In this document: one piece after another, positions 9,673 to 64,000 of the stretch
Position numbering within the stretch: position 1 is the first letter of the stretch
How the letters are laid out: each line of letters opens with the position of its first letter
From: Ostreococcus lucimarinus
Lineage: Eukaryota
Length of the DNA: 64,000 nucleotides
Assembly (NCBI GenBank): GCA_000092065.1
Contig: CP000589.1
Reading direction: 5' to 3' (one strand)
Notes under the pieces: model-generated
The model's input: the letters and a program-made list of their open reading frames with translations, nothing else
What the model was told of the DNA's origin: nothing
Database searches by the model: none
Position numbers and translations under genes: made by a program

Positions 9673-11127
9673 CTAAATCAACGAGCCGCCGGTAAATTTT
9701 GCCGGTGACATTGGAGGGTTTTGAGATCTAGCGTCGTTCGACGACGAAGATCCAAAACCGAGATCTTTGGTCAAGGCGGCGAGCGCGTCCAAGGAGTCGG
9801 TCGCGAGCGGCGGCTTTCGCGGCGACGAGCCGCCGCTCAGTCGCGGGGAGGCGCCGGGAGAACCGAAACTGGATAACCCAAATGGATCGGCCGCAGGTTT
9901 TGGAGGACTTTGGGGAACTTGCGCAGCGTGTGGATGCATCGCCGAAGCCTGCGGGGGCGGTGCGAAACCGAATTGATTCGCCGGCGACGGCGCCGCTCGC
10001 GGCGCAGGCGCGCCAAACGACGCGAGCGGGTCGGCCCCCATCGCTGGCTGCGGCGGCGCGTGCGCCTGGTTCGGGGCGTTGAACAAGTTGTCCAAATCGC
10101 CCCAACCAGAAGCCACCGGCGCGGCCGCGGGTGCAGCCGCAGGCGTCGCCGCGGGCGCGCTCAAACCTCCGAGCAAATCGTCGATGCTCGACGTCAGCGC
10201 CGGCGCCGCGGACGAGGCGGAGGAGTAATTCACCGCCATCACCGCGTTCGTCGCGCGAGGTGGCGGCGCGAACGCCATCACACCCGGCGCCGGCGCGACG
10301 CTCGGTACGGGAACGTCTCTAAAAACAATCTTTGGCGCCGCGTTCGCCAACGGCGCGTCGTCTTCGTCGTCGCTCGAATCCGCCTTTTGTCGTCCCGACG
10401 CGAACGCCGGCGCCGGCGCGCTCGGCGGCGCCACGGGAGCGCGTGGTTTCACGTCTTCGTCCGCGCGATTCCACGGCGCGCCGCCAGCGCCACCGCCCGA
10501 AGAAATCGACGCCGTCGACCGTCGCTCCGAGTCGCCGCCGAGCGCGCTCCCTCCCGAAAACGACCCACCCGCGCTCGACGTCGACCCTCTCCGCGCGTGC
10601 GTCCGCGCTTCTTCGCTCGACATCCCCGCGTACTTGCCGCGATTTCTCTCCGCCTTTTCCCTCGCCTCCTCGACCGATCTCGGATCTTCCACCAACGCCT
10701 TGATCTTTTCCGCTCGATGTCGCACGTTCACCCCCTCATCCTTCCCTCGCGCGTCCTTGTACTCGAACCTCAGCGCGCCGTCCATCATTCGCCTTCGCCT
10801 GACGTCCTCCGCGATCGCTCGATCGCCGTTCGCGACGAGATACTCGACGACGGTGAGCGCCTTGTACGCGCGTCGCCACTCCTCCGGCGCGCTCTTCAAG
10901 CGTTTCTCCAGCACCTCGCGCACGACGTCCCACTTCCCATCGCGCGTGAGCCGCGCGATCGCGCGCAGCTGCTCCCCGTGCGGGCCCCAGGGCTCGGAGT
11001 TCGTCGCGTCGCGGACGAGCGCTTCGTCGTCGCCGATGCCTTTCCATTGATTGACGCGCTTCTTCGCCGCCTGCGCCACCTCGTCCGGGATCGCGGACTT
11101 GATCGTCGTCAGCGCGGCTTTGAACAT
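9673..11127 (-). CDS. Epsin-like ENTH-domain protein with a Pro/Ala-rich tail
   Basis: ENTH domain from ATG 11127..11125: MFKAALTTIKSAIPDEVAQAAKKRVNQ...NSEPWGPHGEQLRAIARLTRDGKWDVVREVLEKRL...ALTVVEYLVANGDRAIAEDV. The unstructured tail carries DPF/FG-like peptides. Confidence 0.75.
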   Translation of the reverse strand: MFKAALTTIKSAIPDEVAQAAKKRVNQWKGIGDDEALVRDATNSEPWGPHGEQLRAIARLTRDGKWDVVREVLEKRLKSAPEEWRRAYKALTVVEYLVANGDRAIAEDVRRRRMMDGALRFEYKDARGKDEGVNVRHRAEKIKALVEDPRSVEEAREKAERNRGKYAGMSSEEARTHARRGSTSSAGGSFSGGSALGGDSERRSTASISSGGGAGGAPWNRADEDVKPRAPVAPPSAPAPAFASGRQKADSSDDEDDAPLANAAPKIVFRDVPVPSVAPAPGVMAFAPPPRATNAVMAVNYSSASSAAPALTSSIDDLLGGLSAPAATPAAAPAAAPVASGWGDLDNLFNAPNQAHAPPQPAMGADPLASFGAPAPRAAPSPANQFGFAPPPQASAMHPHAAQVPQSPPKPAADPFGLSSFGSPGASPRLSGGSSPRKPPLATDSLDALAALTKDLGFGSSSSNDARSQNPPMSPAKFTGGSLI

Positions 11128-11212
11128 CGTCGCCGTCGCGCGCGGCGCGGCGCGCGACGCGACGGCGCGCGACGCGACGGCGTGTGACGCGACGTCTCTT
11201 GCACCGCGCGAC

Positions 11213-11246
11213 GCCAAAACCAAAACCAAAACCAAAACCAAACACG
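11213..11246 (+). repeat. (CAAAAC)n microsatellite in the epsin 5' region
   Basis: caaaaccaaaaccaaaaccaaaaccaaaca, flanked by direct repeats of gcgcgacgcgacggcg. Confidence 0.85.
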
Positions 11247-11319
11247 GAACGCGAAAGCGGGCACGCGTCACTCGGCGACGCGTCGCGCGCCGGACCGGCG
11301 ACGCGCGCGCGCGCGACGC

Positions 11320-11565
11320 GTGCCGATGAACGCGTCGACGTGCGTCGTGTGCGGCGCGACGGGACGCGGGAAGACGACGGTCGTGAACGGATTGGTGCGG
11401 GAAACGCTGCGGGAAGAGATTCTTCTCGGAACGGACGACGAGGACGCGCGCGCGACGGAGCGGGCGCGCGCGGTCGTCGATGAGGTGCGACGAAGGACGA
11501 CGCGCGACGACGCGAAAAACGCGAATGCGATGGTGCGCGCGCTCGAGACGAAGCGCGGCGAGTGA
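11320..11565 (+). CDS. Possible 5' exon or ORF carrying a Walker A/P-loop (uncertain)
   Basis: VCGATGRGKTTVVNGL is a canonical GxxxxGK[ST] motif. It lies immediately upstream of, and in a different frame from, the 11702..13420 ORF that carries DTPG. How the two connect (intron or frameshift) is unresolved. Confidence 0.25.
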   Translation: MPMNASTCVVCGATGRGKTTVVNGLVRETLREEILLGTDDEDARATERARAVVDEVRRRTTRDDAKNANAMVRALETKRGE

Positions 11566-11701
11566 CGCGCGCGCGGGACCGATGCGACAGAGCGAGACGA
11601 CGCGGGCGAGGCGCGATGGAAATCGGCGCGCGGCGAGACGCGAAGGACGGACGACGAACGGAGGGGATTGGAGGTGGCGACAGCGCGAAGAAGTGCGAGA
11701 A

Positions 11702-13420
11702 ATGATGTCTAGTGATGAGGGGCGACGAGCGATGGAGGCGTGCGTGCGAAAACAGAATGCGTTGGATGTGATGCCGACGAGCGCGAGGACGGGGTGCCCG
11801 ATAGCGATTCGACGCGCGACGTTGGACGACGAAGATGAAAAACAGGCGGCGAACGGCGTGTTCATCGCGCGAGTCGTCGTGCGATACCGAGAGGAGCATG
11901 AACTGGAGCAGGCGTTGCTAGATGTGGCGATTCAGTCGCGCACGGCGGGAGAGTTGGCGGGGAGACTGTGCGCCGGAGGGACGCCGCCAAGAAGAAATCG
12001 CGCCGACGAGGACGAGGCGGAGGCGAACGACGGATCGATCGAAGAACTCGCGAGCGTGCTCGGTGAAGACCCAAAAGACGTGAAAGCGCGTGTGTTGGAG
12101 TGTTACGATCGATGTGAGCCATTTCTTCCAGCGCGCGTTCGAGATTTGCTCGGACGCGAACGCGTGTACGAAGTCCGAAGCGCTTGCGCCGGCGCCGCAC
12201 TCACGGCTATTCGTTCTTTTATTTTACGCGTGGCGACGGCGGGTAAGTGGACGCACTGGGGCATCATAGAAGGTACGGTCGAGGTCGAGCTTCCGTTAGC
12301 GTACGACGTCAAGTTCGTGGATACGCCCGGGATTGATGCGTCGCAATTCTCTCTCAAGCGATTGCGCCGAGTAATTGGCGCTGAAGCCGAGGAGCGATTC
12401 GGGATGTTCATATACGTGTGCGGTAAAGATGCACCGAAAGAGTGGGAGTGGAGCGCTCTGCATGCAATGGGTACGCTAAAGAAGATCGTCACCGAGGGTC
12501 CGCGGCTGTGTTTGTGCTGGCCCGTGGAGCTCGTGGTGAACGCCAACGGACGTCCAGATGGCTTTGTCACGAATCTCCAAATCAAAAAGTTCCAGGATCG
12601 CACGTTGAAGATGCTGCGATCGGACTCTAATCATTGGCGCGAACGTCTTGATCAATGTATCGTCGCATCCAAGGTCGATGGCTTGCGCGGTGATTTAAGA
12701 CGCGGCATGGCGCTGGCGTTTGTTCGGGCGTTTAAGCCCGACGCCTCGACGATTTTGAAGTATTCCATGTATCAGCTGGCGTTTTCGGTGGAAGAAGAGC
12801 TCAAACCATCACCGCCGAGCGATAACGGCAGTGGAGTCTTACCGAGCACCGCGGTGGTCGCTGACGCAAAACCTTCGACAGACCCTTGTCCGAAGACCAA
12901 GCGAAAGATTGACGAAGAAGCCGCGACGAAAGCGTCGCCACCAAAGAAACGCCTTAAGAAGCAACCACGCCAGTGTACCATCGCTGATCCATTCGTGTTC
13001 AACGAAGACGATGGTCTTTTTGCCGACGAAGACGCCGCAACACCTCCAATGTTCGGCAAGCACATCGCAAAAACCAAATCAACGCGCTCGCCGCTCGTCG
13101 ACGCCAACGAAAAGTCTCGCGCGACGGCGGCGGCGCGACGCAAAACCAAACCGTCGAACACCGCACCGAAGCGACCGCTCGTCTTGACGTCGACGACCGT
13201 TTCTCCGCCGAAGTCGAAGCATCGAGGTGCTGAAGCACCGCAGCCGAAGCTTTCCCCTCAACTCTCCGCGACGCCCGCGTCCAAGCCTGCGCGAAATCGG
13301 CCAAAGTTCGTCGTCGCCTCCGTCGACGACGGTCCCACCCCATCCCCACCCCCCGCGCGTCCGAAACGCCCGCGCGAATGCACGAAACAACCTTGGTGGG
13401 TCGTCCAATCGCATCGATAG
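11702..13420 (+). CDS. Hypothetical protein with a GTPase-like G3 motif (DTPG); basic, Pro-rich C-terminal tail
   Basis: Long non-repetitive ORF. KFVDTPGIDASQF and a downstream hydrophobic strand (FIYVCGKD) resemble AIG1/IRG/dynamin-type GTPases. C-terminal K/P/S-rich tail with KRKI/KKRLKK NLS-like peptides. ATG at 11702. Confidence 0.5.
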   Translation: MMSSDEGRRAMEACVRKQNALDVMPTSARTGCPIAIRRATLDDEDEKQAANGVFIARVVVRYREEHELEQALLDVAIQSRTAGELAGRLCAGGTPPRRNRADEDEAEANDGSIEELASVLGEDPKDVKARVLECYDRCEPFLPARVRDLLGRERVYEVRSACAGAALTAIRSFILRVATAGKWTHWGIIEGTVEVELPLAYDVKFVDTPGIDASQFSLKRLRRVIGAEAEERFGMFIYVCGKDAPKEWEWSALHAMGTLKKIVTEGPRLCLCWPVELVVNANGRPDGFVTNLQIKKFQDRTLKMLRSDSNHWRERLDQCIVASKVDGLRGDLRRGMALAFVRAFKPDASTILKYSMYQLAFSVEEELKPSPPSDNGSGVLPSTAVVADAKPSTDPCPKTKRKIDEEAATKASPPKKRLKKQPRQCTIADPFVFNEDDGLFADEDAATPPMFGKHIAKTKSTRSPLVDANEKSRATAAARRKTKPSNTAPKRPLVLTSTTVSPPKSKHRGAEAPQPKLSPQLSATPASKPARNRPKFVVASVDDGPTPSPPPARPKRPRECTKQPWWVVQSHR

Positions 13421-25575: not shown

Positions 25576-27945
25576 CTACGCCTCGACGCGAGCAAAATTT
25601 GTCGAACCGGCGTGCGGGTCGGCGTCGACAAACTTTAGCGTCAGCGTCTCCCCCAACACCGCGCCGCGATCGAGCTTCACCACAGTTTCGTAGCCAAGGT
25701 CGTCGAAGATGACCAAAACTAAATCGTCGCCGCGAATAAACTTGACCACCGTCGCCGTCCAACGCGCGTCCGCGGGCTGGGCGTCAAAGTACGCCGAAGC
25801 CCAATACTTTGACGTCTCGCGTTGAGAGCGAATCGCGCCACCAACGGTGGTACCGACGTCTTCGATGACGTTTTCCATCGATTGTTCGTCGAATGGAAGC
25901 GGTTCGCCTCGTAAGTACGCCTTGATTTGATGATGCGCCAAGACGTCGGCGTACCTGCGAATCGGCGACGTAAACTGCACGTACGCGCTCAAGCCGAGAC
26001 CGGAGTGCGGACGGGGCGTAGCGCCACTCGTCGATGACGTCATGCACGAACGCATAGCCATATCCTGACATATCCCTTCGGGGATTCCATCCCACTCGTC
26101 GTCGGACATCAAGCGCGGCTCGCCCTGACCTCGGAAAGGAAGCGGGATATTTTCTCTCACGCCAAAGCGCGCGACGACGTCGCCGACGAGAACCATGAGC
26201 TCGGAGACGAGCATGCGCGCCGGCGTGTGACCATTGATTTTTGACATTGTTATAGCGACGTCGCCGTCGCCTCCGCGCGCGGTGGCTCCTCGCACGTTGA
26301 CTGAATTCTCGGGAAGAATGATGGTCACCGAACCGTCTTCGGCGCGACGCTCGTCTCGCGCGCTCGCCACCTTGTACAACAATCGAAGTCCTTCATCGCA
26401 CGTCGCGCTGTCGAGTTCGACGTCGACTTCATCGTACGTCCAACGTCGATCGAGCTTTACGAAACTCGGCATAATTTCAAAATCCATGATGTTACCCTCG
26501 CGATCGATGTCGGCGCGAACCGTCATCGCCTCGCTCGCGACGTCTGACCTCGAGCCCAAAGACATCGGACCCGCGGCGATTTCCAGAGGAAACATCGGGA
26601 CGATCTCCGTGGGGTAATACAGCGTCGTCGCGCGCTGACGCGCGATGGCGTCCAGCGGCGACCCGAGAGGGATCCATCGCGTCGGATCGGCGATGTGCAC
26701 CCACACTCGAATCTGTCCGTCGTCGCCCAGCGCCTCGGCGCTCACCGCGTCGTCCACCTCAACCGTTTCAGCGTCGTCGATGGCGTACGCTCTTAGGTAA
26801 GTTAAATCCACGCGCGACGCGGCGTCGGCGTCGACTGGTTCATTAGACAACACCTCCGCGCACGCTTTTGCGGTACCTTCGGGGAAATCAATCTGCACCC
26901 CATACTTGCGCACGGATAAATTTTCGTGTCGGCTCCACGTGCCGGTTGAAATCAACGTCTTCAACGCGCCCTCGGATGAGCGCGTGAACCCTAGTTTGCC
27001 GAGTAAATCGTCCGCCATCGCCTTCTCTCCGGCGGAATGGAATTTCTCGCCGAGCGCGTACGCTTCCAGCGCCTCTAATCGACGAACGCGCGCGTCGTTA
27101 TCCTCGTCGCTCGGTCTCCATAGCGCGTCGCGATCGGGCTTTACTCCCGCGGGCGCCGCGGCGGCGGCTTTGATCTCATCCAAAAACGCTTCTTCCACCT
27201 TTGCTGCGCGAGATTCAGCTTCTGCTTTACGCTTAAGCGCGTCTATTTGATCCGCCGCGCGCGATTCGTACGTCCCTTTCGCCTTCAGTTTGAAATAAAT
27301 ACCCCCCATCGGCGAGCTCAACAGACGATGCGCGGCGAATTCCCTCGCGCCCGCGGGCGCGTTCGCGTCGTCTTCAAACATCAACTCGCTCACGTACGTC
27401 GCATCGCACACCTCCCCACTCTCTAACCCAAACTCATCGATCAGTTCCCACGCCCCTCGCAATAACGCATCCGCCTTCGCGCTCTCCGCCGCGTCTCGCG
27501 CGAAGCGTTCCATCGCTTCGCAGTCGCACTTCGCGCCAAAGTTAAAATCAATCGCCTTCGCGTTCACCTTGACGCTTTCGCGTCCCGGCATCTCTCGCAC
27601 CACCACTCCCGTTTTCCCGTCTCGTCGCTCCACCGTCCCGATTCGCACCTCCCCGCGCCTCGAGTACGCCACGCCGTCGCCCGCCTCGACGTCGCCGCTC
27701 GCCGCGCGCGCCGCCGCGCGCGTCCCGCGTCCCCGCCCTCCCTCCGCGCGCGCCGACGCCCGCGTCGCGCGCGTCGTCGTCGCCGTTCGTCGTCGTCGCG
27801 CCGCCGTCGCGCGTCGTCGCCCGTCGCTCGCGTCCGCGCGCGCGCGCGACGCGCTCGCGGCGCCGAGCGCGCGGTCGACGCTCGCGCGCATCGCGAGCGC
27901 GCGTCGAGCGCCGATCTCGAGCGCGCGTCGCGACGCGCGGCGCAT
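25576..27945 (-). CDS. RNase II/RNase R family 3'-5' exoribonuclease (RNB domain), organelle-targeted (RNR1-like)
   Basis: RNB catalytic region (LRAYAIDDAETVEVDDAVSAE...IRVWVHIADPTRW...ATTLYYPTEIVPMFP) and a C-terminal S1-like region; R/A-rich presequence. Confidence 0.8.
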   Translation of the reverse strand: MRRASRRALEIGARRALAMRASVDRALGAASASRARADASDGRRRATAARRRRTATTTRATRASARAEGGRGRGTRAAARAASGDVEAGDGVAYSRRGEVRIGTVERRDGKTGVVVREMPGRESVKVNAKAIDFNFGAKCDCEAMERFARDAAESAKADALLRGAWELIDEFGLESGEVCDATYVSELMFEDDANAPAGAREFAAHRLLSSPMGGIYFKLKAKGTYESRAADQIDALKRKAEAESRAAKVEEAFLDEIKAAAAAPAGVKPDRDALWRPSDEDNDARVRRLEALEAYALGEKFHSAGEKAMADDLLGKLGFTRSSEGALKTLISTGTWSRHENLSVRKYGVQIDFPEGTAKACAEVLSNEPVDADAASRVDLTYLRAYAIDDAETVEVDDAVSAEALGDDGQIRVWVHIADPTRWIPLGSPLDAIARQRATTLYYPTEIVPMFPLEIAAGPMSLGSRSDVASEAMTVRADIDREGNIMDFEIMPSFVKLDRRWTYDEVDVELDSATCDEGLRLLYKVASARDERRAEDGSVTIILPENSVNVRGATARGGDGDVAITMSKINGHTPARMLVSELMVLVGDVVARFGVRENIPLPFRGQGEPRLMSDDEWDGIPEGICQDMAMRSCMTSSTSGATPRPHSGLGLSAYVQFTSPIRRYADVLAHHQIKAYLRGEPLPFDEQSMENVIEDVGTTVGGAIRSQRETSKYWASAYFDAQPADARWTATVVKFIRGDDLVLVIFDDLGYETVVKLDRGAVLGETLTLKFVDADPHAGSTNFARVEA

Positions 27946-28007
27946 TCTGAGGCGTCGCGCGTCGTCGCGTCGTCACGTCGCGACGCGCCGATTCGTTCGG
28001 CTTCGCC

Positions 28008-28505
28008 ATGCCGCGCGCGCCGCGACGCGACGCGCGCGGTGAGACGGCGTCCGCGCCGAGCGTCGACGACGGCGCGACGCGCGACGGCGCGCGAACGGCG
28101 TCGCGCGACGAGGCGAAGGAGGTCGAACCCGTCGCCGATCGCGCCGACGACGACGGACTGCCGGGACACGCGGTGCAGCGCGGCGCGAACGCGAAGGAGA
28201 GAGCGGATGAATATTACGGATACGCCGACGCCTTGGCGTTCGCGCAGAAGGAGCGCGAGCGAGAGAGGAGCCGACGAAGACGGGCGAATCAGTCGTCGGC
28301 GGCGCGGGAACGCGAACGCGCGCGGTCGCAGCGAAGACGAGACGCGCTGAGCGAAGAAGCGAGACGCGCGCTGGCGGAGAAAAAGGTGCGGAAACGAATG
28401 GTGGAGAGACAGGAAAGGAATCACAACACCGCGGCGGCGGTGCTGGCGTCGCGATTGGACGACGAACGCGCGGCGACGAACGCGAGAGCGGCAAACGCGG
28501 AGTGA
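28008..28505 (+). CDS. Small basic hypothetical protein (165 aa)
   Basis: Complete ORF 63 nt from the divergent RNase II start. DEYYGYADALAFAQKERERERSRRRR followed by a charged helical region. No family recognised. Confidence 0.35.
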   Translation: MPRAPRRDARGETASAPSVDDGATRDGARTASRDEAKEVEPVADRADDDGLPGHAVQRGANAKERADEYYGYADALAFAQKERERERSRRRRANQSSAARERERARSQRRRDALSEEARRALAEKKVRKRMVERQERNHNTAAAVLASRLDDERAATNARAANAE

Positions 28506-28755
28506 CGACGCGGCGAAGAAGCGTCGATCGGTGGTTGAATTCACCGCCGCGATCGATGTCGGACTACGTATATGAACTATTTTAAATTATGTGTAAGCGT
28601 GCAGTTTAGTTTAGTTTACGCGCGCGTCGACCCACCGCGCGAGCGACTTTGCCCGTTTACGGCGTCGTTTCGCGCGCGCGTCGCCACTCCACGGCGCGTC
28701 GACCGAGCGCCCGTCGCCGTGACGTCTCGCGCGCGCGACTACTTGTCCGTTCGTC

Positions 28756-30573
28756 ATGCCCGGCGCCGCCGACGCGCGCGCGGCGGCGCAAAAGGGTGAT
28801 AAGCAGCGCCAGAATGTTTTTGAACCGATGAGTGGGACGCGAATTTCAAATCGTCTCGTGTCCGGCGCCGTCGTGCGCGCGCGATTCGACGATCGCCGAC
28901 ACTGCGCGATCAAAGATTTAGAAAAGGAAATCGTCGGCAAGCACGGATTCGTGGGCGTGGTGACGGAGGCGAGGATAAAGGTGAATGGAAGAGGTTCAAA
29001 GTACGCGCTGTGGACGGTGAGCGAGCTGCGCGGCGGCGGCGCGAGCGCGACGGTGTCGGTGTTCGGAGACGCGTACGCGGCGCACGGTGAAGACGAAAAG
29101 AAGGCGATAGGATTCATATGGGGAGTGTTTGATACGAAATTCTACCAATCGCGAAGCGTGAGCGTGGAGGATGGAGGACAGTTGATGAAGATTGGCGCCG
29201 CCGCGGATTTCGGCGTGTGCAAGGCGACGAGGAAAGACGGGACGCCGTGCACGAAGGCTGTGAACGTGTCGGAGTGTAAGTTTTGTGAATTTCACGTCCC
29301 GAAAGCGATTCGTGAGGTGGCGAACGCGCAGCGACAGATGACGGGGAAGAGAAACGCGAATGGAGACTTCAAAGTCGGCTTGCAAAAGTACGGAGCGTCG
29401 ATGCAACCGACGAGCGCTCGAGCGAGTCATTTACAGCGACCGGGCGAAGGCTTGATGAATGGCGGTCCCGCACCGAGCGCGAGAGCACAAGCGATCTTGA
29501 AGCAATCCAACGCACATCTCCCTCGCAACGCGTTCAAACCTAAGCGAACGGGAGAGGAATTCGCGGCGAGACTGCACGCCAAGGCGCCGACGACGATGGC
29601 GCTCGAAGAGGAAGATTTGGACTTTGAAGACGATAAAGAGGCGCTCGCGACGCTCGCGAGGCAACACGCGGCGTCTATTGCTCAGACGCGTCAGGACGCG
29701 TCGCGTGCGAAGCAACGCGAAGTGGCAGAGCGGTTGAGAGCGACTGGACTTACGCTAACAAAGCCAGACCCGAACGACACGTCGGCGAAGAAACCGACGA
29801 CGACGGTGCGAGCGGAACCCAAACCGTTGCCCGAAACCCTGAAAGCGCATGGTTTACAGATGGCCACCGTGCAACAGTTAGAACGTAAGCTCAAGGCTGA
29901 GATTGCGCGTAGAGAGGCGCTGGAGAAGGAGAACGAAGAGTTGCGACGTCAACTCGCCGAAGCGCGCGGCGCGCCTGCCTCGAGTTTCGCTCCAGCGCGG
30001 CCGGCGATGCGAGACGTGTCGAACAACGGCACCAAGTCCACGAGCGCGCCGTCGACTACGGCTAGATTATTCGGTCACGTCGCCGCGCCCGCGTTGAAGT
30101 CTCGATACGCCGCCGAAGCCGAAGAAGAAGACGTGGATCAAATGATGAAGAACATGGACGCGTTGGAAGAACGCGACCAGCTCGCCGCACAACTCGCGCT
30201 GAAACGCGAGGTCAAAGTCAAGGTGTACCATTGCACGGTGTGCGAGAAAAAGACCCGATTTTTTGATGTTGCGACTTGTAGAGAGCATCGCGACAGCGTG
30301 AAGCACGTGGATTCCATCATGCGATACTTCCGCTGTAAGGGGTGCAACCGAACGAACACGTCGTTCGACTCGCTGACACCCAAGCACTGCGAGAAGAGTG
30401 GGTGTATGAGCGTGGCATTCGAGCGCGTCACCGTCGCGGACGTCACCACCGCGGCGAAACCACGCAAAGAAGATTTGGTCGCCGTGGAGGGCAACGTGGC
30501 GAATCGAGACGCCCTCGCGCCGCGCGGCGTCGAACATGGTTTTAGGTTGGACACCATACACAATAGCGCTTAG
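28756..30573 (+). CDS. MCM10: MCM10 homolog (DNA replication initiation factor)
   Basis: OB-fold region followed by the Mcm10 CCCH zinc finger (GTPCTKAVNVSECKFCEFHVPKA). The C-terminal tandem zinc ribbons (VYHCTVCEKKTRFFDVATCREHRD...FRCKGCNRTNTSFDSLTPKHCEKSGC) match the metazoan-type Mcm10 C-terminal domain. Confidence 0.8.
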   Translation: MPGAADARAAAQKGDKQRQNVFEPMSGTRISNRLVSGAVVRARFDDRRHCAIKDLEKEIVGKHGFVGVVTEARIKVNGRGSKYALWTVSELRGGGASATVSVFGDAYAAHGEDEKKAIGFIWGVFDTKFYQSRSVSVEDGGQLMKIGAAADFGVCKATRKDGTPCTKAVNVSECKFCEFHVPKAIREVANAQRQMTGKRNANGDFKVGLQKYGASMQPTSARASHLQRPGEGLMNGGPAPSARAQAILKQSNAHLPRNAFKPKRTGEEFAARLHAKAPTTMALEEEDLDFEDDKEALATLARQHAASIAQTRQDASRAKQREVAERLRATGLTLTKPDPNDTSAKKPTTTVRAEPKPLPETLKAHGLQMATVQQLERKLKAEIARREALEKENEELRRQLAEARGAPASSFAPARPAMRDVSNNGTKSTSAPSTTARLFGHVAAPALKSRYAAEAEEEDVDQMMKNMDALEERDQLAAQLALKREVKVKVYHCTVCEKKTRFFDVATCREHRDSVKHVDSIMRYFRCKGCNRTNTSFDSLTPKHCEKSGCMSVAFERVTVADVTTAAKPRKEDLVAVEGNVANRDALAPRGVEHGFRLDTIHNSA

Positions 30574-32294: not shown

Positions 32295-34295
32295 CTAAAC
32301 ATTTCTATCTTTCGGGGCGACGTAATCCAATTGTAATGCGTCGAAGATGTCTTTTTCGTCGCGAACGCGAACGCGCGAAGCCGCGGCTTCGGACCGGTCG
32401 CGGAACAAGCCTTTGTCTTGCAAGGCATAACCTTTGCGCTTAGCCCACAATCGCATGCTTCGATTAAACTTGTCGCTACCGGTGAAGTAGAGCAATGCCG
32501 TGGGAAATGCGTCGGTTTCGTAGACTTTGATGTCGATTCTGCGATGCACGGGCGGTGCCTGGTCATCCGCGCGTAGGGGCTGCTGAAGAGCGGCGACTCC
32601 CATGTACTGCACGTCGCCGACTTGCAAGTCATCCGTCAAGATTCCACTTCGTGGGCTTGGGCTACCCGCGCGCAAGTCGTTCAGTATGTGCATCAATAGG
32701 TCGTTGGCGAGAGAGACGTCGCGACACTCGACCAAAACGTCGACGTCGCCCGAATCTGCTTTGCCTCTGCGGAAAGAGCCAACGCAGTAGCATCGCACTT
32801 CATCCTTCATGAACGTATTCGCCGCCTCACGAACAGCGGTAGCGATGTGACTGACTTCTTCGCGTGGTATACGTTGCTTGAATTCTTCGTAATACTTCAG
32901 ACCGATCCACTGCGTCGGCGTGAGAGTGTCACGCGGTACGCCCGGCGCACGCAAGTCTGCGAGGGATTTGTACCCTTTGTCGAAGAGCTTTCGAGCGGTG
33001 ACAGGGCCGACGCCGTGGATCCCGGAGAGTTCTACGCACGATTTCACATCTGGCCTCTGACGTAAACTTTGCAGCGCCGTCAGCTTACCAGTGGTCAATA
33101 TCTCTTGCACGTACTTGCGTATCTTGCCGTCCCGTTTTTTCAACATCGGAATCACGTCAACTTGATCGATTGATTGCACTTCGAAATTCAAAGAACGCAA
33201 CGCACTCGCCGCGGCGGCGTATTGCTTTGCTTTGTACACTTCTCTCAGCGCGTCCTGGTTGATTTTCGCCATCTCAGAGAGTAAATCTGCAACCTTCGAG
33301 TTGCATTCCAAAGGCATCGCTTTCGCATTTTGCTCGCTCGGTTGACACGAAAAGAATTTCCGGCTCGCCTCAAGTTTTTCGTGGTCGACTAAATCGCTCG
33401 TCCAAACGACACCGAAGCCTTCAGAACGGCGCACCGCAACAGCACTGGCGTGCTCTTTGCGTTCACGAGCCGCGAGTGCTTTTCGCTCGGCTTCGCTCGA
33501 CGTCTCCGTGTCTTGAGAATGCGGCCGATCTGGAAGCGCCCGAATGAGCACTCGCGGCGCGAATTCGGGCGCATCCACGGGAAGCGCACGATTTTGCTTG
33601 TAGCTCTCCGTGATCCATTCCGGCGTGATCGTGATCACGTCCTCTAGAGCGATCAATTCCAACGCTTTCGTCAACGGCGCGTTTCGTTCGCTCGCCACGA
33701 CATGCGTGACGCCGCCGTCGGCGGCGCTCGTCGCGACGGATCCACCCATACGCTCGAGTGTTCGCCCCAGCGCATCGGCGCGTTTGCTCGGTATGTTTAT
33801 GAAGCACGCGTGAACGCCCTTCATGAGCGATGATACGTCGACGACGAGAGCTTCTGAGTCGTCGGCGTCGTCCGAGCGATCGCCGCCGACGTTCGCCGCC
33901 GCCGCGCATCTCGCGAGCGCTCGATACGGGTCGTCCACGGCGACGTCGCCGCAACCGATGGCGTCGGCAAACATTGCCGCGTTTCGCGCGCAATCTGAAG
34001 TGTTCATGGAACGGCTCTCGTTCGTCGCGCCTTCCGAACTCTCCGCGCGGCGCGCCGCCCTCTCGCCTCGCGCGCTCGTCGTCGCCTCCACTCGCTCTAA
34101 GTCTCTCACCCGAAGCGATTTCGGCAACTCCAACGTTTCCGTCGCCTCTGTGCCCTCGTCACCGACGCTCGCGCGACGGCGCCGTCGCCGTCCCGCCGTG
34201 GCGGCGTCCTCGCTCAACAGCGCGCGCACCAAGCGCTCGGCGTCGTCGCCCAAACCATCCTTCGCGACCGCAGAGACGCGCCGTTTACCGCCCAT
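32295..34295 (-). CDS. POLL: DNA polymerase lambda (Pol X family) with an N-terminal BRCT domain
   Basis: BRCT domain (GVHACFINIPSKRADALGRTLERMGGSVAT...ITPEWITESYK); helix-hairpin-helix 8 kDa domain; nucleotidyltransferase motif (GSFRRGKADSGDVDVLV); thumb (LLYFTGSDKFNRSMRLWAKRKGYAL). Confidence 0.85.
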   Translation of the reverse strand: MGGKRRVSAVAKDGLGDDAERLVRALLSEDAATAGRRRRRRASVGDEGTEATETLELPKSLRVRDLERVEATTSARGERAARRAESSEGATNESRSMNTSDCARNAAMFADAIGCGDVAVDDPYRALARCAAAANVGGDRSDDADDSEALVVDVSSLMKGVHACFINIPSKRADALGRTLERMGGSVATSAADGGVTHVVASERNAPLTKALELIALEDVITITPEWITESYKQNRALPVDAPEFAPRVLIRALPDRPHSQDTETSSEAERKALAARERKEHASAVAVRRSEGFGVVWTSDLVDHEKLEASRKFFSCQPSEQNAKAMPLECNSKVADLLSEMAKINQDALREVYKAKQYAAAASALRSLNFEVQSIDQVDVIPMLKKRDGKIRKYVQEILTTGKLTALQSLRQRPDVKSCVELSGIHGVGPVTARKLFDKGYKSLADLRAPGVPRDTLTPTQWIGLKYYEEFKQRIPREEVSHIATAVREAANTFMKDEVRCYCVGSFRRGKADSGDVDVLVECRDVSLANDLLMHILNDLRAGSPSPRSGILTDDLQVGDVQYMGVAALQQPLRADDQAPPVHRRIDIKVYETDAFPTALLYFTGSDKFNRSMRLWAKRKGYALQDKGLFRDRSEAAASRVRVRDEKDIFDALQLDYVAPKDRNV

Positions 34296-34916
34296 GATCG
34301 CCCCACTCGCTCGTTCACGGCGTTCGATACGACGCGTCGTCGTCGTCGTCGTCGTCGTCGTCTATATCTTCCAACGCCTCGTCCGCGTCCTCGTCGTACG
34401 ACGACGTCGTCGCCTCCGACCGCAACTCCGCCTCCAATCGCTCCGCCCTCGCGCTCGGCGTCTCTATCGGTCCTCTCCCCGTCCCGTCCAACGACGCTCG
34501 TTCGTCGTCGTCGCCGTCGCTTCCGTTCCCTCCCCGCGTTCCGAACGTCCCTCGCGCGTCGTCCTCGTCGTCGCCGCGCTCGTCGTCCTCGTCGCCTCGC
34601 GCGTTCGTCCCTCGCCGTCGCGTCGCGCCGTGCCTGAACGACGCGCTCCGTATCGCGATTCGCGCGCCGCCGCCCTCGTCCCGCCCTCGCGCCCCTCCCA
34701 CGGCGTCCAATCGCGCGCGCTCGAGCCGTTCGAACCGTTCGACGTGCGCGCGCGACGCGTCGTCGTGCGTCGCGCTCGCGCTCGCCGATCGCGCGAACGC
34801 GGTGCGCGCGCCGCACGCGTACCGTCCACCGTTCGGCGGCGCGACGCGCATCGACGCCTGCGCGAGCGACGCGCGATGCCGTCGTCGCGCGCCGAACGCG
34901 GGCGACCGCAGAGCGA

Positions 34917-35112
34917 CGCGCGTCGACGCATCGCGCGGGCGTCGACGCATCGCGCGGGCGTCGACGCATCGCGCGGGCGTCGACGCATCGCGCGCGTCGC
35001 GTCGGTCGCGCGCGTCGCGTCGGTCGCCATCCATCCATCCAACCATCCGACCGGGACATCGATCCATCCATCCATCCATCCGTCCGGGACATCGATCCAT
35101 CCATCCATCCGA
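34917..35112 (+). repeat. Minisatellite cluster in a divergent promoter region
   Basis: Three and a half copies of a 21-nt unit (cgtcgacgcatcgcgcgggcg), then two copies of tcgcgtcggtcgcgcgcg, then (CCAT)n-based units (ggacatcgatccatccatccatccgaccg, about 3 copies). Seen directly in the sequence. Confidence 0.85.
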
Positions 35113-35156
35113 CCGGGACGTCCGCGCGTCCGTGCGTCCTCCGACGAACGGGCAAC

Positions 35157-36011
35157 ATGACGACGGGCGCGAACGCGCGCGCGCGATCGGGATCGAACGC
35201 GACGACGACGGCGAGACAGACGACGACGAAACAGAGCGCGGCGCGGACGACGACGCGGGACGGCGGGACGAGCGAAGGCGCGAAGGACGACGGGGAGACG
35301 ACGGCGAGACGAGTGAAAAAGAAACCGGGAGAACGACGGATGACGCACGCGCCGAGCGTGATGTGGTTCGCGACGCTGGCGTGCGGCGGCGCGCGCGTGT
35401 GGTCGAGCGGCGCGGTGGGGGAGAGGGCGCTCAAGGCGAGCGCGACGGCGCGATTCGGTTGGATGGACGACGTGTTTTCGAGCGCGATGGGACCGGCGTT
35501 ACCGCTGACGTGCGCGCTCGCGAGGTGGTTCGCGGCGTCGTGCGTCACGGAATACGATCGAGGTAGAGAGGGGTTGGTGCCGCTGGGGACGTGCGCGCAC
35601 ATACGCGCGGACGTGGAGGCGTACCTGTACGTCGCGGCGACGCGGCTTTTGGCGTACGCGACGCTTCGGCGCGCGTGGCCGTCGGCGTTTATGAGCGATC
35701 ACGTCTTCTTGGCCGCGAGCGTGTTCACCGCCGTGCACGGGGAAGTGTTGAGCTGCGCGGTGGACTTTCTCATCCTCGTCGAGCGACGGGAAAAGCCGTT
35801 AAGGCGAACCGCCATCATGTGCGTCGCCCTGTACGGCGTCGCCGTCATGGCGGCGACGTGCGTCGAAGTCTTCGTCACGGCGAGATTTTATCATCGCGGT
35901 CTCGAGACCGCGGTGGCCGCCGTCTTGGGTTGGTTCGTCTTACAGCGTCCACTCGTGCTCGCCGTCGTCAGGCCGCGCGCGAGAGAATTAGCCGCCGCGT
36001 TAGCCTTGTAA
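35157..36011 (+). CDS. Hypothetical multi-pass membrane protein
   Basis: Complete ORF. T/R-rich N-terminus, then 5-6 hydrophobic segments ([11 protein letters not shown]; [12 protein letters not shown]; [22 protein letters not shown]; [17 protein letters not shown]). An alternative start is MTHAPSV at ~35340. Confidence 0.4.
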
Positions 36012-63876: not shown

Positions 63877-64000
63877 TAGGGTTTAGGGTTTAGGGTTTAG
63901 GGTTTAGGGTTTAGGGTTTAGGGTTTAGGGTTTAGGGTTTAGGGTTTAGGGTTTAGGGTTTAGGGTTTAGGGTTTAGGGTTTAGGGTTTAGGGTTTAGGG
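63877..64000 (+). repeat. Telomere: (TTTAGGG)n, plant-type, G-rich strand running 5' to 3' toward the end
   Basis: About 17 perfect tandem TTTAGGG units reach the last base of the window. They are preceded by degenerate variants (AGAAACTAGGGTT at 63540..63580; GAGGACTAGGG at 63870). Confidence 0.95.

Follow-up and report, generated by a model that had tools for sequence, protein, structure and literature searches.

The 861 bp at positions 34296-35156 of a 64-kb window (the whole stretch of DNA analysed here) from Ostreococcus lucimarinus CCE9901, a telomere-proximal chromosome end, lie between two divergent genes, and are flanked, as had been noted before, by the ATG codons of the 666-aa open reading frame (ORF) of DNA polymerase lambda (pol lambda) and of a 284-aa ORF. 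The original prediction took the whole interval for a long, repeat-packed divergent promoter. In this study, we report that the 861 bp very likely comprise a small gene, ORF178, together with a 305-bp divergent promoter and leader region that carries hypervariable tandem arrays, with pol lambda probably expressed by overlapping transcription. ORF178 appears to be a real protein-coding gene that is missing from the O. lucimarinus annotation, its orthologue being annotated in O. tauri. The earlier observation is partly confirmed and its interpretation largely replaced, and the picture of the locus is corrected from an anomalously long promoter to an unannotated gene with a normal-sized bidirectional promoter. 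The features of the locus are as follows.

34315-34851, minus strand: ORF178 (178 aa plus stop; protein P0040), predicted as a gene from codon usage, substitution pattern and conserved position; no CCE9901 protein accession is attached to it
34335-34362, minus strand: (CGT)9.3 on the plus strand, which is (GAC)n on the minus strand; the poly-Asp run of ORF178, found by Tandem Repeats Finder (TRF)
34546-34624, minus strand: imperfect tract with 9/15/21-nt periods (TRF rows, 69-79% matches); the Asp/Glu/Gly-rich low-complexity middle of ORF178
34296-34314, minus strand: 19-nt spacer from the ORF178 stop codon (TGA) to the pol lambda ATG (context gatcATGg)
34852-35156, no strand: true divergent spacer of 305 bp from the ORF178 ATG to the ATG of the 284-aa ORF; shared promoter and 5' leaders
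32295-34295, minus strand: coding sequence of DNA polymerase lambda (family X), 666 aa, from the ORF and the Pfam domains BRCT, HHH_8, DNA_pol_lambd_f, palm and thumb on the identical product
35157-36011, plus strand: 284-aa hydrophobic 'predicted protein', an exact match to XP_001419659.1 / ABO97952.1 of O. lucimarinus CCE9901

Coding evidence for ORF178

ORF178 occupies 537 of the 861 bp, and the coding signal over this stretch is confined to its frame. With a codon-usage log-likelihood ratio (LLR) trained on 22 long ORFs of the window, ORF178 scored +0.30 bits/codon in its own frame and below zero in the other five, the same pattern as that of the training ORFs (0.10-0.35 bits/codon in the six with printed scores). 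The signal stops at the ATG at 34851, and the codon-usage LLR showed no coding signal in any frame over 34852-35100. GC content by codon position is 0.73/0.60/0.84 (0.84 at the third position, GC3); the plus strand is strongly C+T-rich at 34350-34800, so that the minus strand is purine-rich there.

A longer minus-strand frame, 34315-35100 (261 aa, ending in ...EDIDDDDDDDDDASYRTP), was rejected as the gene, its part upstream of 34851 having no coding signal, being made of variable arrays and not being conserved. A tiny intron joining ORF178 to pol lambda was also ruled out, as the gap is only 19 nt and the frames differ.

Protein searches with ORF178 returned only population variants and, from the sister lineage (contigs L013 and L014), a single diverged orthologue, P0041 (183 aa, 68% identity). 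P0040 and P0041 have the same start Met (34851 in the window) and the same ...ASYRTP stop 19 nt before the pol lambda ATG, and the DNA alignment to the sister lineage is good over 34296-34855 and collapses directly upstream of the ATG at 34851. Between ORF178 and its L013/L014 counterpart, substitutions number 17/22/38 on codon positions 1/2/3, and omega is 0.38, to be compared with 0.26 for pol lambda and 0.63 for a neighbouring gene. The second close pair, L018 and L022 of clade D, has 2/4/9 substitutions on the three positions. The earlier statement that the interval contains no credible ORF does not hold, since ORF178 has gene-like codon usage, an excess of third-position substitutions and a conserved place.

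The (GTC)n tract encodes the poly-Asp tail of ORF178, and its length always changes by whole codons: the sister lineage has 4 copies, wild sequences have 6-11, and the members of the ORF178 protein cluster are 173-179 aa long. Likewise, indels relative to the sister lineage in the tract at 34546-34624 keep the frame. The poly-D translation, which had been dismissed as junk, is thus the acidic tail of ORF178. The protein consists of an N-terminal helix region, a disordered middle rich in Gly, Arg and Asp, and the acidic tail, which ends in ...DDDDDDDDDASYRTP. Most of it is disordered in the AlphaFold model, which places helices at residues 12-52 and 132-148.

The ORF178 family in Ostreococcus

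The exact pol lambda protein of the window was found in 533 blocks of public assemblies, and homologues at 51-66% identity were used to fetch contigs of further lineages. A small ORF (ORF1) lies on the same strand directly upstream of pol lambda (ORF2) in at least six other lineages, namely L013/14, L015/16, L017, L018/L022, L037 and L019. Across lineages ORF1 has 98-183 aa and ends 13-98 nt before the pol lambda ATG, and ORF2 has 659-694 aa. ORF1 length and the spacer to the pol lambda ATG are listed below.

L013/L014 (sister lineage): ORF1 of 183 aa, spacer of 19 nt
L015/16 (O. tauri lineage): ORF1 of 154 aa, spacer of 30 nt
L017: ORF1 of 166 aa, spacer of 28 nt
L018/L022 (clade D, the clade of Ostreococcus sp. 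RCC789): ORF1 of 110 aa, spacer of 44 nt
L037: ORF1 of 98 aa, spacer of 13 nt
L019: ORF1 cut at its 5' end, spacer of about 95-98 nt

The gene order hydrophobic protein (-), small ORF (+), pol lambda (+), 60KD_IMP, MCM10 is kept in L001-L018, L022 and L037. The ORF1 proteins have in common the motifs MRxxPPxxGx[YF]Ax[GS], [AF]ER...R and [ER]TPG and an acidic tail, often with a terminal [SG]Y[RA]TP. In a six-frame tblastn search, the ORF178 frame alone matched the upstream regions of O. tauri (L015) and clade D (L018), with E about 5e-4 in a small database, and BLASTP aligned ORF178 collinearly with the L017 ORF over its full length (E = 0.007).

The orthologue of O. tauri RCC4221 is annotated as CEF99229.1/XP_022839715.1, an 'unnamed product' of 154 aa, and the family X polymerase CEF99228.1 is adjacent by accession number. 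Like ORF178, CEF99229.1 lies directly upstream of pol lambda on the same strand, with a short spacer (30 nt in the O. tauri-lineage contig), and both proteins have an N-terminal GxYAxG / ER..R segment, an [IV]ETPG motif, an acidic tail and a GY[RA]TP end. CEF99229.1 differs in being only about 30% identical to ORF178, and in having neither the long poly-Asp run nor the central block of the latter. Judged by these comparisons, the ORF178 family is a fast-evolving one, restricted to Ostreococcus and always placed directly upstream of pol lambda on the same strand.

Two readings that deny ORF178 its coding role have to be weighed against this evidence. One holds that the whole 861 bp are non-coding, a long, repeat-packed divergent promoter that might also serve in regulation, position nucleosomes or act as a recombination hotspot. 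Repeat density, which is 4-7 times the window average, fits such a region, as do the absence of a CCE9901 protein accession for ORF178 and the polymorphism of the arrays, which a hotspot would also show. We regard it as very unlikely, because it leaves aside the frame-specific codon usage, the third-position bias, the conserved start and stop, the same place in seven lineages and the annotated O. tauri orthologue, and because the repeats within the left-hand 537 bp belong to low-complexity coding sequence and vary by whole codons.

The other reading is that 34315-34851 owe their conservation solely to serving pol lambda as a promoter or as a long 5' leader free of ATG, the open frame and the protein-like conservation being by-products. 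Pol lambda transcript contigs do extend at least 136-286 nt into 34315-34851, and depletion of ATG is what a long scanned leader would need. A leader, however, would give neither gene-typical codon usage in exactly one frame nor an excess of third-position substitutions, nor indels in the Asp tract that are exclusively in frame, and protein motifs would not persist in it at 51-65% pol lambda divergence, at which the DNA has ceased to align. This makes it a quite improbable account, and the reading of 34315-34851 as a gene is preferred.

Several points weigh against the reading of the locus proposed here. Similarity to the distant orthologues is weak (28-38% identity) and compositionally biased. 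A Pfam scan of ORF178 gave no family and nothing below E = 0.2, and a profile search of 1.84 billion representatives with a hidden Markov model gave only the family of ORF178 itself, with no homologue outside the genus. The AlphaFold model is of low confidence (predicted local distance difference test, pLDDT, 57), which was too poor to justify a fold search. Three other frames are also open across the ORF178 stretch, and openness alone proves nothing, since long frames arise by chance in 70%-GC DNA. Within O. lucimarinus, background diversity is only about 1.3 single-nucleotide polymorphism (SNP) sites per 500 bp, so that the invariance of 34296-34928 within the species is uninformative on constraint. 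That ORF178 is transcribed and translated in O. lucimarinus is presumed from the sequence, and no contig with the whole clade-D ORF1 was found in the culture transcriptomes. Finally, metagenome assemblies can mis-assemble short tandem arrays, and some of the differences between array haplotypes described below may be artefacts.

The divergent spacer and its tandem arrays

From its conservation, a start of the 284-aa ORF at 35157 is plausible, and the divergent spacer is therefore taken as 34852-35156, 305 bp. The N-terminal part of this ORF aligns with SPGERRLTY in two other lineages, and the hydrophobic-protein gene of the sister lineage has its own nearby upstream Met (MARARSGS). A start at the ATG at 35340, considered because the ATG at 35157 is deleted in the sister lineage, was ruled out by conservation upstream of Met62 and by that upstream Met. 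The hydrophobic protein matched no Pfam family. The equivalent spacer in other lineages is about 185-500 bp long, and the 305 bp are an ordinary-sized bidirectional promoter and 5'-leader region for ORF178 and the 284-aa gene. The description as a repeat-packed divergent promoter stands for this right-hand part and fails for the 861 bp as a whole, 537 bp of which are coding. Three short arrays make up about two thirds of the spacer.

34920-34994: 19-nt array, CGTCGACGCATCGCGCGGG x3.9, 100% TRF matches; the feature reaches 34996, with 3 perfect copies and 1 copy with 1 mismatch
34988-35027, no strand: 18-nt array, TCGCGCGCGTCGCGTCGG x2.2, TRF, 100% matches
35027-35119, no strand: 29/33-nt units, (CCAT)n-CCGACCGGGACATCGAT x2.5-3, which are (ATGG)n on the minus strand; TRF gives 33 nt x2.5 at 95%

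TRF thus confirms that the tandem repeats are real, with the CGT, the 18-nt and the (CCAT)n-containing 29/33-nt arrays all recovered. The three and a half copies of a 21-mer reported earlier do form an array (3.9 copies), but its period is 19 nt, the 21-mer having taken in 2 nt of the next unit, and the (GAC)n tract named alongside comes to 2-3 copies only. The 19-nt and 33-nt arrays are the two top-scoring non-telomeric arrays of the window (score 150 each). TRF coverage of the 861 bp is 35% (score >=50) or 53% (score >=30), with 5% and 9% window-wide, which places the interval in the top 1-2% of 861-bp windows for repeat coverage. The phrase 'almost entirely tandem repeats' was overstated for the 861 bp and fits the right-hand 305 bp only, where coverage is 66-92%.

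On the plus strand the arrays are free of ATG; on the minus strand they are ATG-rich, with (ATGG)n and one ATG per 19-mer. Because of this, the start site of ORF178 would be expected in the 77-nt ATG-free leader at 34852-34928.

Public metagenomes hold O. lucimarinus at about 99.6% identity and were used as population resequencing, a purpose they can serve for a picoeukaryote; the single DNA scan of metagenomes gave only six contigs, two of them usable. Over 19 kb, 12 wild contigs had 78 SNP sites and 74 indel positions. The 500-bp bin at 34700-35199 is by far the most polymorphic spot, holding 31 of the 78 SNP sites (40%) and 52 of the 74 indel positions (70%). Copy number of the arrays is polymorphic, every independent wild sequence carrying a different array haplotype (14 distinct haplotypes in 14 independent sequences). 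Counts of the 19-mer range from 1 to 4, canonical copies numbering 1-2 with variant units in addition; the 18-mer has 1-2 copies, and there are 3-6 GGGAC-type units and 9-12 CCAT.

The arrays also turn over between species. Other lineages share neither the 19-mer array, which the sister lineage lacks, nor the 18-mer array; all that is partly shared is an ATCC/GGAT remnant of the CCAT tract, and this with the closest (sister) lineage only. The equivalent spacer carries unrelated repeats elsewhere: (GGAT)9.5 at 9532-9591 of L013, 19-, 18- and 15-mers at 5240-5424 of L015 (O. tauri), and (CGAC)11 at 1850-1900 of L037. It is accordingly the repeat-proneness of the spacer, not the repeat sequences, that recurs across Ostreococcus lineages.

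Being hypervariable in populations and turned over between species, the arrays are read as fast-turnover, slippage-prone minisatellites and not as a conserved element. The three of them most likely evolve by replication slippage and unequal exchange, and the data point to neutral, or at most expression-tuning, minisatellites rather than to a conserved regulatory device. They resemble the promoter variable number tandem repeats of eukaryotes in their head-to-tail units (4, 18, 19 and 29-33 nt) between two divergent start codons, in the variation of copy number and unit sequence between individuals and in their rapid turnover between species. They differ in that the arrays are short (2-4 copies) and in that the population data come from metagenome assemblies rather than typed isolates. 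The minisatellite cluster could serve as a strain marker.

At about 9800-9990 of L013, corresponding to about 34884-34906 of the window, lies an AT-richer insert of ~190 bp, ...GGTGAGGGT...ACCCTATCACCCTACC...TTTTTTTAATCAC..., which the window lacks. Its place is between the ORF1 start codon and the repeats, a zone where the O. lucimarinus variant P0038 has an insertion too.

Two further origins of the arrays were considered, namely an artefact of assembly and a scar left near the chromosome end by a mobile element since lost. The window does reach the end of the chromosome, since a perfect telomere repeat, (TAGGGTT)17.7 at 63877-64000, runs to its last position; the locus is ~29 kb from this repeat, and the unrelated ~190-bp insert occupies the same place in the sister lineage. 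The same types of array were, however, present in independent assemblies from at least 14 samples, the 14 independent metagenome contigs carrying similar and non-identical arrays. Neither terminal inverted repeats nor target-site duplications were found around the arrays, only short, CG-rich, chance-like inverted matches, and no other mobile-element mark was found at the locus. The 19-mer and the 33-mer occur at this locus only within the 64-kb window, so that the repeat unit is not a dispersed element there. Searches of the spacer and of the sister-lineage insert gave sub-threshold noise in Rfam and no tRNAs. An artefact or a scar is on these grounds extremely improbable.

Expression of pol lambda

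The gap of only 19 nt between the two ORFs means that transcription of pol lambda must either begin inside ORF178 or run through it. Overlapping transcription units are the most likely arrangement, and a likelier one than a bicistronic mRNA; the pol lambda start site of O. lucimarinus would then lie inside the 3' part of ORF178. Three contigs of clade-D transcript assemblies (L020, L025 and L026) begin within ORF1, 136-152 nt before the pol lambda ATG, and run to 40-50 nt past the pol lambda stop, covering the last 29-35 codons of ORF1 only; they appear, from the names on their proteins, to originate in transcriptomes of cultured strains (Marine Microbial Eukaryote Transcriptome Sequencing Project, MMETSP), and may be truncated at the 5' end. 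One Logan contig, of unspecified library type, reaches 286 nt upstream of the pol lambda ATG. Neighbouring genes of O. tauri are reported to come out joined in RNA-seq assemblies, since their untranslated regions (UTRs) overlap (Blanc-Mathieu et al. 2014, PMC4378021). The locus resembles the overlapping units of the compact Mamiellophyceae, in which UTRs of neighbours overlap and a start site may lie inside the neighbouring gene, in that the clade-D pol lambda contigs start inside ORF1; it differs in the same-strand coding gap of 13-44 nt, which gives the impression of being extreme for the genus.

The alternative is that ORF178 and pol lambda form one bicistronic mRNA, ribosomes reaching the pol lambda ATG by leaky scanning past a weak ORF178 start. 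Bicistronic and polycistronic loci with leaky scanning have been described in green algae, with signatures as in Gallaher 2021 (PMC7896298) and Duenas 2024 (PMC11291117); the main texts of these two papers contain 0 occurrences of 'polymerase' or 'polymerase lambda' (their supplementary locus lists lie outside this count). The locus is like such loci in several respects: a small ORF1, much shorter than ORF2, precedes it on the same strand at a very short spacer (about 95-98 nt in L019 and 13-44 nt in the other six lineages), every lineage examined keeps the two ORFs collinear, ATG appears depleted upstream of ORF2, and the start context of ORF1 looks weak, with a pyrimidine at -3 in 5 of 5 lineages tested, the pol lambda ATG of the window being gatcATGg. 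From one start codon to the next, all frames are free of ATG in the window, L013, L015, L017 and L018 (374-568 nt) and in L019 (428 nt). Among 553-nt sense windows taken from the window's long ORFs, ATG-free ones make up only 0.7%. Dinucleotide shuffling gave P values for this absence of 0.052 (window), 0.35 (L013), 0.044 (L015), 0.077 (L017), 0.013 (L018) and 0.003 (L019); these are six sequences, and the window and L013 are close relatives.

Against a bicistronic mRNA stand the three independent clade-D contigs, which start inside ORF1 and not upstream of it, and the lack of transcript contigs with the whole ORF1 noted above. In addition, some lineages carry ATGs near the end of ORF1: a single one, 51 nt before pol lambda, in L020 and L022, and two within the final 25 nt in L037. 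The paucity of ATG may partly reflect GC-rich, Met-free, low-complexity coding sequence, shuffling itself leading one to expect only 0.9-3.3 ATGs. The Kozak contexts of pol lambda are not uniformly strong, the weakness of the ORF1 start context is provisional, and overlapping UTRs are the norm, as reported for O. tauri (PMC4378021). A green-algal bicistronic locus has both ORFs on one mature capped mRNA and no separate mRNA for ORF2; the clade-D contigs speak against this here, subject to the possible 5' truncation mentioned above. A bicistronic mRNA is consequently considered rather unlikely, and overlapping transcription units remain the preferred reading. The nearly abutting pair of small ORF and pol lambda is nonetheless a concrete candidate for bicistronic expression reaching the Mamiellophyceae. 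If true, the bicistron would have been found de novo in this class, with a DNA-repair polymerase coupled to a genus-specific disordered partner, and the hypervariable, ATG-rich arrays upstream would constrain the location of the start site.

Two further observations concern neighbouring sequences. The 730-aa ORF at 9673-11865 (minus strand) is ATG-free in any frame for 738 nt after its start codon, the longest such run in the long ORFs of the window; its start may be mis-set, or it may be another arrangement of a small and a large ORF. In the clade-D contigs L022 (3837), L023 (2226) and L027 (5459), the called start of the 60KD_IMP/TPR gene (602 aa) is the last base of the pol lambda stop codon. 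The 60KD_IMP call has 423 aa in O. lucimarinus and 602 aa in clade D, and the difference may be an N-terminal extension or a gene-calling artefact.

The other divergent gaps of the window had been given as 60-200 bp, which is not fully true: a second long gap of 810 bp, rich in CG repeats, lies at 27946-28755 between the ORF of an RNB exoribonuclease (25576-27945, minus strand) and that of MCM10 (28756-30573, plus strand). Long 'intergenic' gaps in compact, GC-rich genomes may be missed small ORFs, of which this gap would be a second case. It contains a 165-aa ORF (28008-28505, plus strand) whose codon usage is gene-like in one frame only (LLR +0.25) and which is also called by metagenome gene callers; this ORF may be an upstream exon or a further small gene that was missed.

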